The position numbers were made by a program, and so were the translations under genes. The notes beneath the pieces are model-generated. The model had not been told where the DNA came from and did no database searches. It saw only the letters and a list, made by a program, of their open reading frames with translations. Below, piece after piece: positions 15,400-27,012 of a stretch of 64,000 nucleotides of DNA (positions are counted from its first letter, which is position 1; every line of letters starts with the position of its first letter). The stretch is from contig JAFGBL010000074.1 in assembly GCA_016933115.1 (NCBI GenBank), positions 3,684 to 67,683 on the forward strand. The letters run 5' to 3'. The stretch comes from Bacteroidales bacterium (GTDB lineage Bacteria > Bacteroidota > Bacteroidia > Bacteroidales > JAADJA01).

Positions 15400-17496
15400 T
15401 CAGCGCAGGATGAGTTTCTTTGTTTCATTAAATTGTTCCGTCCTGATTGAAATTAAATATATGCCGGATTTATAATTTTCCAAGTTAACCTGTTCCCTGA
15501 TCGTTCCCTGTAAAACATCAAAATTTTTAATAACATCCACCACCCGCCCCGACAAATCATAAACAATCATTTGAACGGGGGCCCTGTCCTTCAATTCATA
15601 TTCAATCCAAAAAGGCCCGGAAGTTGGATTGGGATAAATTTTTAGATTATTTGGTTCATCGGCAACCGGGTTCAGAATGCCCGAAACCAGCGGCCCGCCA
15701 CCGTTATCGGTAAACAGGATGGTTCCTCCCGATCCGGCTAACACGCCGGTTTGTTCATCCAGAAAATTCAAACCGTACAAATTGTTGGATGTAAACTGAT
15801 CCCTGAATTTTTTCCAGGTTTGACCGCCATCGGTTGTTTTGATGATCAGTCCGCCGTCACCGCAAATATATCCAGTGTTATTGGATGGAAACTCAATTCC
15901 GTGCAAGGCTGTTGTGTAATCGGTTATTAACAAATCCCAGCTTTCACCGCCATCTGTTGTTTTCCTTATCGAACCATTGTAACCCACCACAAATCCCAGG
16001 GATTCATTCAGGAATTCAATATCGTAAAGCGGCACACCGGTTCCACTGGATAGATGGGAAAACGTGGAATCGTCTGTCGATTTAAGGATAGTGCCACCAT
16101 CACCGGTGATATAACAATCACCATTGGTGTTGAAATAGATTGAATATAAATTTTCGTTGGTAATACCGGGCATTGTATTCCAGGTAACTCCGTAATTTGT
16201 CGTCTTTAAAAAGGTACCTCCAAATCCCACGGCAAACCCGGTGGAAGGTGAAGAAAATCCGATGGCAAATAATGGCTTCTGCATTGGTCCGTAAAGGGTA
16301 TTAAAATGAGTACCGCCATCGGTAGTTTTATAAATTGTCCCATTATTTCCGGCCAGGTAAAGGGTGTCGGAATCGATAACAGCCAAGTCATTGATACTTT
16401 CAAAAAATTCAGCGGCCGCTTCCCACTTTGTTGGACTACCCTGGGTCCGCATCAAAATACCAATGTTATTGAACGGATCTCCTCCCACAGCAAAACCAAG
16501 CATATCGTTCAGCAGCCGAACTTTCTGCATCGACCTTACGATCAATTGGGTTTTGTGCATCCACACCTGTCCCCAGTTGGTACAACTTATGATTGATCCA
16601 AAATCACCAGCCAGATAAATGATTGAATCCTTTTTACAGGAAGATGAAATATCGGCGATGGAATACGAATTCAGGGGTTCCCAGTTACCTCCGCCATTTT
16701 GGGTAAATAGAACGTATCCTTCCTTACCTGCAACAATACCCGTATCGGGATGCGAGAACACGATTGTTTGAAGAGCCAGGTCGTTCAATTCGTAGGAAAT
16801 ATCCGACCAGGTACTTCCGCCATCAGTGGTTTTGAGTATAATGCCGACATTTCCAACGATGTAACCGACCGATTTTGTGGCAAAATAAATATCGAACAAG
16901 GTTTTATTTGTACCGGTTTCAATTTTAGTCCAGTTTCCGCCTGCATTCAGCGTTCTTAATACGGTTCCTTTTTCTCCCACAACAATTCCCGTGTCGCTGT
17001 TGAGGAACAGGATTTTATTGAGCGTTTGGGTAGTGCCCGATTCCAGGAAGAAAACAGTATCGCAACCATCTGTTGTTTTGAGGATAATTCCTTTATATCC
17101 GGCCATGTAACCAACCGACTCGTCGGTAAAATAAACGGAATTTAAATTGGTTTGGGTATTTGAATAAGTTGTTCTCCAACCGCCTTCAGAAGAACTGTAT
17201 TTCATGATTAAACCTCCGGTACCAACCGCGTAACCGGTTTCATTATTTACAAATGAAAATCCCTTGATACTTTCTTTTACGGTTTCATATTCCAGGTTAT
17301 TGAAATACCAATCGATAAAATTACCGGTTGAATAGGCACTGCCAAAATCTGCTACGGTCATTAAAATGTTATCCTCAAATATGGCAATATCGTTGATGCG
17401 GTTGCCATGCGGAAAGGGATTGCCCCAGGTAAACTGGGCATCCACCCGATTGAAAGCAAAAACTAAAATCAGGACGAGTACAAAGGGAAACTTCAT
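15400..17496 (-). CDS. BNR/Ycf48-like beta-propeller protein with T9SS type A C-terminal sorting domain
   Basis: Has a signal peptide (MKFPFVLVLILVFAFNRVDAQ). It carries more than 10 repeats of G-x-I-[LI]-K-T-T-D-G-G-x-[TS]-W type. The C-terminus KIYPNPTSGPFWIEYEL...GIYLISIRTEQFNETKKLILR matches the Por/T9SS type A CTD. Confidence 0.75.
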   Translation of the reverse strand: MKFPFVLVLILVFAFNRVDAQFTWGNPFPHGNRINDIAIFEDNILMTVADFGSAYSTGNFIDWYFNNLEYETVKESIKGFSFVNNETGYAVGTGGLIMKYSSSEGGWRTTYSNTQTNLNSVYFTDESVGYMAGYKGIILKTTDGCDTVFFLESGTTQTLNKILFLNSDTGIVVGEKGTVLRTLNAGGNWTKIETGTNKTLFDIYFATKSVGYIVGNVGIILKTTDGGSTWSDISYELNDLALQTIVFSHPDTGIVAGKEGYVLFTQNGGGNWEPLNSYSIADISSSCKKDSIIYLAGDFGSIISCTNWGQVWMHKTQLIVRSMQKVRLLNDMLGFAVGGDPFNNIGILMRTQGSPTKWEAAAEFFESINDLAVIDSDTLYLAGNNGTIYKTTDGGTHFNTLYGPMQKPLFAIGFSSPSTGFAVGFGGTFLKTTNYGVTWNTMPGITNENLYSIYFNTNGDCYITGDGGTILKSTDDSTFSHLSSGTGVPLYDIEFLNESLGFVVGYNGSIRKTTDGGESWDLLITDYTTALHGIEFPSNNTGYICGDGGLIIKTTDGGQTWKKFRDQFTSNNLYGLNFLDEQTGVLAGSGGTILFTDNGGGPLVSGILNPVADEPNNLKIYPNPTSGPFWIEYELKDRAPVQMIVYDLSGRVVDVIKNFDVLQGTIREQVNLENYKSGIYLISIRTEQFNETKKLILR

Positions 17497-17510
17497 TTGG
17501 GAATGGGTTA

Positions 17511-26800: not shown

Positions 26801-27012
26801 CCATTGCTGAAAATACCCCGAGCGCCGTCGGCTCCCTGGTATTGAACGTTGCTGTATTGAACACCCTCGCCGACAATATTTTCAACCATTGCTTCCGGAT
26901 CAACTCCCGGATTTACATTTATTTGTGCAAAAGAATTATTTCGGATCAATAAAAGGAAAGCCAAACTGAAAATAACGATATATCCTTTAGTTTTGAAAGT
27001 AGACTTTGTCAT
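23848..27012 (-). CDS. choice-of-anchor L domain protein with Calx-beta-like domain, Cys-framed repeat array and T9SS type B C-terminal domain
   Basis: Has a signal peptide. The N-terminal ..[30 protein letters not shown].. is the choice-of-anchor L signature. ..[40 protein letters not shown].. is Calx-beta-like. The C-terminus [16 protein letters not shown]...YKGSLTVLG is a type B CTD. Confidence 0.8.
   Translation of the reverse strand: [1054 protein letters not shown]
24133..25612 (-). repeat. seven tandem Cys-framed modules of about 70 aa (protein-level repeat)
   Basis: The repeating pattern is [IL]C-x-G-[DE]-x-x-x-L-[DN]-A-G..Y-x-W-x-[DN]-G-S...V-x-x-x-G-x-Y-x-V-x-V....C...D-x-I-x-V. 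Examples are [48 protein letters not shown] and [13 protein letters not shown]. Three related copies occur in the neighbouring giant gene at about 18808-19475. Confidence 0.7.

Follow-up and report, generated by a model that had tools for sequence, protein, structure and literature searches.

A conserved four-gene cassette of uncultured Bacteroidales that probably encodes type IX secretion cargo together with a carrier

We analysed a 64,000-nt stretch of the genome of an uncultured Bacteroidales bacterium (assembly GCA_016933115.1, contig JAFGBL010000074.1, positions 3,684 to 67,683), here called the window, with positions counted from its first letter. Four adjacent genes in the window, g1 to g4, encode two giant proteins with T9SS (type IX secretion system) type B C-terminal domains (CTDs), a PorP/SprF family protein and a double beta-propeller with a type A CTD. 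The same gene order recurs in about 20 species-level metagenome-assembled genomes (MAGs) of uncultured Bacteroidales. From these sequence comparisons, the cassette is probably a conserved T9SS cargo-plus-carrier operon of the same kind as sprB-sprF of Flavobacterium johnsoniae, and its predicted products can fairly be read as a surface adhesin assembly. The type B CTDs of g1 and g2 belong to two classes, and g3 is the predicted cognate carrier of the g2 class.

Four tightly packed genes for predicted T9SS cargo, carrier and propeller

The genes, delimited from the list of open reading frames (ORFs) and from matches to hidden Markov models (HMMs), all lie on the minus strand, in the order g1 (23848..27012, 1054 aa), g2 (18531..23819, 1762 aa), g3 (17511..18527, 338 aa) and g4 (15400..17496, 698 aa). 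The gaps between them are 28, 3 and 14 nt. A preliminary description of this DNA had reported four co-directional, tightly packed minus-strand genes, and we find them at exactly the positions it gave. For g2, translation from the ATG at 23819 yields 1762 aa that begin like a typical signal sequence, and a deposited MAG protein of just this length is 100% identical. An alternative upstream GTG at 23855 would give 1774 aa (18531-23855) and an 8-nt overlap with g1.

Searches with family models placed the type B CTDs, the type A CTD and the PorP/SprF protein above their curated cut-offs, so the class assignments of the preliminary description stand. The type B CTD of g1 (aa 962-1049 of 1054; 23866..24129, minus strand) scored 46.8 bits with TIGR04131 (cut-off 35) and 66.1 bits with PF13585 (cut-off 27). 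That of g2, which occupies the last 87 aa and ends ...KGNITLLR (18534..18794, minus strand), scored 52.3 and 49.2 bits with the same two models. The type A CTD of g4 (aa 620-697; 15406..15639, minus strand) scored 46.2 bits with TIGR04183 (cut-off 23) and 49.9 bits with PF18962 (cut-off 27). g3, which is encoded immediately downstream of the type B gene g2 and begins 3 nt after its stop, matched TIGR03519 with 161.1 bits (cut-off 90.55) and PF11751 with 120.9 bits (cut-off 22.3) over aa 9-318; its mature N-terminus reads QDIHYSQ. Within the 64-kb window there is no other PorP/SprF gene and no other gene with a type B CTD.

A candidate promoter lies upstream of g1. The sequence TACCTTTG (27149..27156, minus strand) fits TAnnTTTG, which we take to be the consensus of the Bacteroidota -7 box, and is located 144 nt upstream of the g1 start in a 297-nt intergenic region (27013-27309). 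Of 14 orthologous loci, 13 had a TAnnTTTG box at a distance of 144-290 nt upstream of g1, where about 0.1 per 300 nt would be expected from shuffled operon frequencies. As the box is far upstream of g1, a long 5′ leader is implied. Inside the operon we counted eight such boxes against a shuffled expectation of 4.4, which is not clearly in excess, and none of the three junctions contained a terminator-like site. A sigma-70 promoter scan was uninformative (42 sites against 41 expected), and the TAnnTTTG box was used instead. Because a box precedes g1 and no junction holds a terminator-like site, we infer that the four genes are likely to be co-transcribed.

The gene order is conserved in uncultured Bacteroidales

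Related loci were taken from contigs that encode g2 homologues (31-78% identity) and from a scan with the g3 alignment across GTDB species, each represented by one genome. The scan yielded 25 loci, all from uncultured MAGs whose labels are nearly all Bacteroidales or Bacteroidetes. ORFs in all of the relatives' loci (given below by L numbers) were classified with phmmer. All 13 loci with sufficient sequence upstream of a close orthologue of g3 had the order g1-g2-g3, including one locus with swapped passengers (L020) and one that is fragmented (L032). In 20 of the 26 loci that were informative for g4, it came directly after g3. The spacing was kept as well, with median gaps of 23, 3 and 16 nt across 14-19 loci (the 3-nt median between g2 and g3 comes from 19 loci) and a g3-g4 gap of 14-18 nt in most.

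Since the order recurs in so many species-level MAGs, with g2 only 37-45% identical across the cassette relatives, it does not reflect chance juxtaposition. The preliminary description had proposed a comparison of synteny in relatives; with order and tiny gaps kept in about 20 species, lack of conservation cannot be held against its operon. L017 and L032 come from the same MAG (MFD00032.bin.2.138), in which the cassette is present twice, on separate contigs. The second of the two is apparently fragmented, by pseudogenisation or by long-read frameshift errors.

Two type B CTD classes and their relation to the carrier

The CTDs of g1 and g2 are 36% identical in the window and 31% identical on average across loci. 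Members of the g1 class share 67% identity with one another, and those of the g2 class 54%. In its conservation the g1-class CTD equals g3 (67% versus about 64%). A metagenome scan with the g1-class CTD recovered two further true members at 68-69% identity, and the next matches reached at most 47%; because of this fall in identity, the g1 class is discrete. g1-class CTDs also occur away from the cassette. In L034 the CTD is on a protein with a different head, with neither g2 nor g3 nearby, and in L035 the start of the contig truncates the protein, and neither g2 nor g3 follows downstream.

In every locus, a g2-class CTD is found on the product of the gene that immediately precedes g3. This is also true of the most telling locus, L020 (L020:2-5880), in which the passengers have traded places. 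Its first gene encodes the g2-like passenger with a g1-class CTD, and its second the choice-of-anchor L passenger with a g2-class CTD. The swap spans a C-terminal module of about 300 aa, and the two genes are separated by 233 nt rather than the usual ~23. Thus, CTD class, not passenger, tracks the carrier-adjacent position. Extra g2-like paralogues were found downstream of g3 (after the carrier or the propeller) in L013, L014, L015, L023 and L025, so that in these loci the carrier has g2-like cargo on both sides. Where the C-terminus of the second g2-like gene is visible (L014 and L015), its CTD is g2-class.

We asked how far g3 co-varies with each CTD class beyond a phylogeny proxy. In partial Mantel tests, which are exploratory, as they cover only 14 loci from related taxa and use a crude proxy, g3 co-varied with the g2-class CTD (r=0.54, p about 2e-4); for the g1-class CTD, the co-variation fell short of significance (r=0.22, p about 0.13). 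A type B substrate depends on a cognate PorP/SprF protein, for which the gene usually lies directly downstream and to which the substrate remains bound (PMC12618676, PMC9143113). From the positional rule, the L020 swap and the Mantel co-variation, we conclude that g3 is the predicted cognate carrier of the g2-class CTD.

The preliminary description had proposed that one PorP/SprF would serve two cargos. The indirect evidence from CTD divergence, gene position and co-variation leans against equal treatment of g1 and g2. One carrier for several cargos is already known, as the orphan carrier Fjoh_1677 of F. johnsoniae has three orphan substrates (PMC12618676). This trio is a precedent for g3 with several type B cargos, but its CTDs are more than 44% identical and its genes are unlinked, whereas the two cassette CTDs are 31-36% identical and their genes contiguous. 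Carrier crosstalk in F. johnsoniae worked at 68% CTD identity and failed at 43% and 26% (PMC12618676). In a rough census of 81 unrelated metagenome type B genes, made with self-built HMMs that may miss divergent carriers, the next gene was a carrier in seven cases and another type B gene in 13. Tandem type B genes and carriers in trans thus seem common.

A near-C-terminal cysteine in the carrier

The carrier is very well conserved. Among 180 g3 homologues, about 100 clusters are 59-84% identical, far above the conservation of the cargos (37-45% for g2). The g3 profile had no match among PDB sequences. The C-terminal tail of g3 (aa 319-338, KKFCSRMSTKREPCKFLEF; 17514..17573, minus strand), which by analogy to SprF is taken as periplasmic, contains Cys323 (in KKFC) and Cys333 (in PCKFLEF). 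Cys333 is an invariant alignment column: of 120 g3 homologues, 119 have a Cys roughly six residues before their C-terminus, and 105 have two. Six of eight unrelated PorP/SprF proteins from metagenome loci also have a Cys within their last five residues, usually in the form C-P-[RK]-F where the g3 group has PCKFLEF. (The survey covered P0061-P0180 plus L044, L053, L088, L100, L103 and L106.) Across these sequences, a near-C-terminal Cys looks like a general PorP/SprF feature.

In F. johnsoniae, a Cys-x-Cys in the SprF C-terminal tail forms a disulfide with Cys343 of GldK, which tethers the loaded SprF carrier to the moving track; PorG does likewise (Liu et al., PMC12635249). That study covered SprF and PorG and did not discuss other family members. 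By analogy, the simplest reading is that g3 is probably disulfide-tethered to PorK/GldK through its tail Cys. HMM scans of g1-g4 and the flanking genes detected no PorE-like or OmpA-type peptidoglycan-binding domain. In F. johnsoniae, absence of a PorE-like gene correlates with cargo that is mobile rather than fixed to the wall (PMC12618676, PMC9143113).

The giant proteins and the double propeller

g1 consists of a signal-like N-terminus, whose hydrophobic stretch ends ...SFAQ (read by eye), a choice-of-anchor L domain (aa 41-271; 26200..26892, minus strand; NF038133, 256.6 bits, cut-off 27), about eight Ig-like repeats of ~75 aa each and the type B CTD. The preliminary description had called g1 a choice-of-anchor L/Calx-beta/repeat protein. 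The anchor L domain and the repeats hold, but the Calx-beta-like stretch (aa 320-368) is sub-threshold, at 21.3 bits against a cut-off of 27. A literature search returned no paper that mentions choice-of-anchor L. The sole solved sequence relative of g1 is GhpA (PDB 9FLP, E 1.7e-33), which it matches through the repeats and CTD. Like g1, GhpA combines Ig-like repeats with a type B CTD, but it is 5898 aa long and forms the grappling hook of Aureispira, with a role in predation, whereas g1 has 1054 aa and a choice-of-anchor L head. Nothing suggests a common function of the two proteins.

g2 has a signal-like N-terminus with a hydrophobic stretch ending ...FAFSQ (read by eye), three divergent all-beta repeats (aa 21-525, 526-986 and 987 to ~1440; 19500..23759, minus strand), an Ig-like region and the type B CTD. 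The repeats are 460-505 aa long, are 27-30% identical in pairs and each start with YWVGGxGxW. They were recognised from these starts and then aligned; self-BLAST of g1, g2 and g4 did not bring up any repeat pairs within them. In a confident AlphaFold2 model, repeats one and two of g2 (aa 21-986; pLDDT 90.4) are all beta. Comparison of this model with PDB folds gave no match below E 0.1, and the weak matches were mostly beta-helix proteins (VacA, HK620 tailspike, PL6 lyases, Ag43 and EtpA). From the model, the repeats are predicted to be all-beta and possibly solenoid-like. There is no Pfam model for the repeat, and g2 had no match among PDB sequences. The repeat family is nonetheless large: it comprises 2221 representative clusters if matches are counted at E<=1e-3, and 635 if counted at E<=1e-30. 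The proteins that contain it reach 7761 aa and have as many as 26 matched stretches. SprB repeats (PF13573) had no match in g1 or g2 and were present only in distant partial homologues of g2.

g4 is built from a signal-like N-terminus, two Ycf48/BNR-like beta-propellers and the type A CTD. PF14870 (Ycf48/PSII_BNR) matched five stretches with 155.8 bits (cut-off 27). The preliminary description of a BNR/Ycf48-like propeller with a type A CTD was right about the family and the CTD but had a single propeller, where the AlphaFold2 model (pLDDT 89.3) has two in tandem, followed by the CTD sandwich. Among PDB sequences, g4 matched the Ycf48-like protein 2XBG (E 4.5e-21), although it falls below the Ycf48 equivalog cut-off (163 bits against 326). 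The top Foldseek match of the model was PorZ of Porphyromonas gingivalis (5M11; E 2.2e-19, TM 0.52/0.49, root-mean-square deviation (RMSD) 16.6 A), followed by GH74 enzymes and the glycan sensor BT4663. Because the double propeller has matches at E<=0.001 to more than 1300 PDB chains, the fold match to PorZ is generic. PorZ 5M11 was not found by g4 among PDB sequences at E<=0.01, and an NCBIfam scan (E<=0.01) returned no PorZ-named family, although presence of a PorZ model in that library is unconfirmed. The g4 CTD looks like an ordinary type A CTD, since its mean identity among orthologues is only 35%. In four unrelated metagenome loci (L041, L044, L100 and L103), a short ORF that matches our home-built type A CTD model lies ~0.6 kb downstream of a PorP/SprF gene; these gene boundaries are approximate.

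Discussion

In the mechanism that we favour, all four products would be exported by Sec, judging from their signal-like N-termini. g2, and possibly g1, would then cross the outer membrane through the T9SS translocon, and type B CTDs would be passed to the g3 barrel. As cognate carrier of the g2-class CTD, g3 would remain bound to its cargo and anchor it at the cell surface. The invariant tail Cys would probably tether the loaded carrier to PorK/GldK by a disulfide, as in SprF, with no PorE-like wall anchor encoded alongside. g4 would take the general PorV/type A route and become a surface or released double-propeller accessory, which may bind glycan.

How g1 is carried could be explained in two ways. 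g3 might carry both g1 and g2, in turn or together, and so anchor two giant adhesins, an idea we hold only tentatively. Sharing is argued for by the strict g1-g2-g3 linkage (g1 accompanies the other two in all 13 suitable loci) and because no second PorP/SprF gene is in view in the window. The conservation of the g1-class CTD at the level of g3 is in keeping with it, as are the L020 swap, which keeps both CTD classes in unchanged order, the one-carrier-three-substrates precedent (PMC12618676) and the census, in which carriers adjoin few type B genes and trans, probably shared, carriers seem common. However, the two classes are more divergent than the F. johnsoniae trio and fall below the 43% identity at which crosstalk failed, g3 and the g1-class CTD do not significantly co-vary, the g1-class protein of L034 has neither g2 nor g3 nearby, and both cargos in L004 lack an adjacent carrier. 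Alternatively, g3 might be exclusive to the g2 class, with g1 a co-expressed partner of g2 that is carried by another PorP/SprF protein (the core PorP or an orphan carrier). This, too, we consider plausible but short of probable. It fits the distinct and discrete nature of the two classes, the positional rule and co-variation, which favour the g2-class CTD only, the g1-class CTDs found away from g3 (L034 and L035) and the orphan substrates and orphan carriers established in F. johnsoniae (PMC12618676). Yet a second carrier was not seen in 64 kb of this genome or in the ~20-kb pieces of the others, and co-regulation alone would have to explain the strict linkage. We think it unlikely that a single g3 handles two CTD classes, that g1 and g2 form a two-component structure on the same, possibly PorK/GldK-tethered, carriers and that a PorZ-like g4 is their dedicated partner. 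If one carrier did handle two CTD classes, it would break the rule of one CTD class and one cognate carrier derived from F. johnsoniae, and the cassette, including its passenger/CTD swap, would be a natural system for decoding carrier specificity.

Two further explanations concern g4 and the unity of the cassette. g4 and g3 could form a pair like PorZ-PorQ, in which g4 keeps its CTD and docks on g3 as an attachment or glycan-delivery module. PorZ, the top PDB fold for the g4 model (TM about 0.5), retains its CTD and binds the PorQ barrel with it (review PMC10202324); g4 follows g3 by 14-18 nt in most loci, and a glycan-synthesis cluster adjoins the cassette. We nevertheless regard such a pair as very unlikely: g4 lacks sequence-level similarity to PorZ, the fold match is generic and its RMSD large, and g3 is a PorP/SprF protein, not PorQ. 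In addition, the pairing is marked down because the g4 CTD is ordinary and poorly conserved while g3 is highly conserved. The least probable explanation, to which we give hardly any weight, is that the four genes are mere neighbours of the same secretion pathway, with their own promoters and unrelated roles. The genome is rich in T9SS cargo, with at least four more type A CTD candidates in the 64 kb, two of them just below the Pfam cut-off, and eight TAnnTTTG boxes lie within the operon. However, gaps of 3-28 nt have been kept across about 20 species in which g2 is 37-45% identical, the internal boxes are not clearly above expectation, and no junction has a terminator-like site.

Several observations weigh against a single cargo-plus-carrier operon of the sprB-sprF kind, even though we favour it. 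Its parts are separable, as L004 retains the g1-g2 pair with neither carrier nor propeller adjacent, and L006 is rearranged, with the carrier at the front, a g2 homologue and two further type B proteins after it, and no propeller. g4 is one of more than 4200 proteins in a Ycf48-related family, evolves fast (29-36% identity among cassette orthologues) and may have a role unrelated to adhesins. The tail motif of g3 is C-x9-C, or a single Cys in some orthologues, where SprF has C-x-C. The Mantel co-variation is exploratory, and internal promoters may exist within the long coding regions.

Compared to sprCDBF of F. johnsoniae, the cassette likewise has a giant type B surface protein followed at once by its PorP/SprF carrier, an operon without a PorE-like gene and a conserved Cys in the carrier's periplasmic C-terminal tail. 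It differs in that g1 and g2 lack SprB repeats (PF13573), no equivalent of sprC or sprD was recognised among the four genes, there are two cargos, two CTD classes and an extra type A propeller gene, and the Cys spacing of the tail is not that of SprF. A motility filament, which the preliminary description had offered as another reading, is speculative: g1 and g2 lack SprB repeats, and no gliding genes are in view within the window, which covers only this part of the genome. In Fjoh_3952-Fjoh_3951-Fjoh_3950 of F. johnsoniae and in PG1035-PorP-PorE of P. gingivalis, whose type B cargo is static and anchored to the wall, the cargo is also bound and anchored by a PorP-like barrel encoded side by side with it. 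Those systems include a PorE-like peptidoglycan-binding partner, whereas the cassette has none, and g4 has a type A CTD and no OmpA-type domain. PorZ resembles g4 in having two beta-propellers and then a type A-like beta-sandwich CTD, but there is no detectable sequence similarity, the domain orientations differ (as the RMSD reflects) and g4 is a member of the very large Ycf48-related family. The cassette thus differs from the described cases in its two cargos and two CTD classes, the type A double propeller after the carrier, the absence of SprB repeats and of a PorE-like partner, and the Cys spacing. Standard annotation already picks up every family in it.

What pairs a type B CTD with its PorP/SprF protein, and how a loaded carrier is routed to a moving track or to a fixed anchor, are open questions that have so far been studied almost only in F. 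johnsoniae and P. gingivalis. The cassette leaves the current picture of the T9SS unchanged and supplies candidates with which to test it. It offers a very well conserved carrier and two discrete, well-conserved CTD classes side by side, together with a natural experiment in which the passengers have been exchanged and the carrier-adjacent CTD has not changed. The tail Cys of g3 would extend the SprF-GldK disulfide idea to a distant Bacteroidales lineage. The cassette also points to a large, unmodelled family of beta-rich repeats in giant surface proteins.

Genomic surroundings

Downstream of g4 lies g5, a 485-aa hydrophobic protein without a Pfam or NCBIfam match (13835..15292, minus strand), which is conserved at this position in most loci. 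The 107-nt gap between g4 and g5 contains its own TAnnTTTG box, TATTTTTG, and g5 is probably a separate unit. We considered g5 as a counterpart of the Wzx-like flippase encoded at the same position in L006, but the two proteins have no similarity. g5 leads into a glycan-synthesis cluster with genes for a sulfotransferase (13188-13829), GT1 (12178-13197) and GT4 (9744-11048) glycosyltransferases and a YfhO-like protein (7279-9747).

The four other type A CTD candidates in the window are at 41444-43966, 47928-49535, 51591-53717 and 57938-59725. Two score above the cut-offs, a LamG plus PNGase-F-C protein, whose gene comes right behind a SusC/SusD pair (36374-41369), and a protein of the choice-of-anchor J type. 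The other two, a right-handed beta-helix protein (24.5 bits) and a 708-aa protein without another domain (25.2 bits), are below the Pfam cut-off of 27. The left end of the window encodes PEP carboxykinase (1244-2887) and pyruvate phosphate dikinase (3053-5896), and a ParA/ParB pair is found at 55425-57114. An RseC-like gene and an operon for the Rnf complex occupy 30378-36214. As the Rnf operon suggests an anaerobic lifestyle, the host, a member of an uncultured Bacteroidales lineage, is probably an anaerobe.

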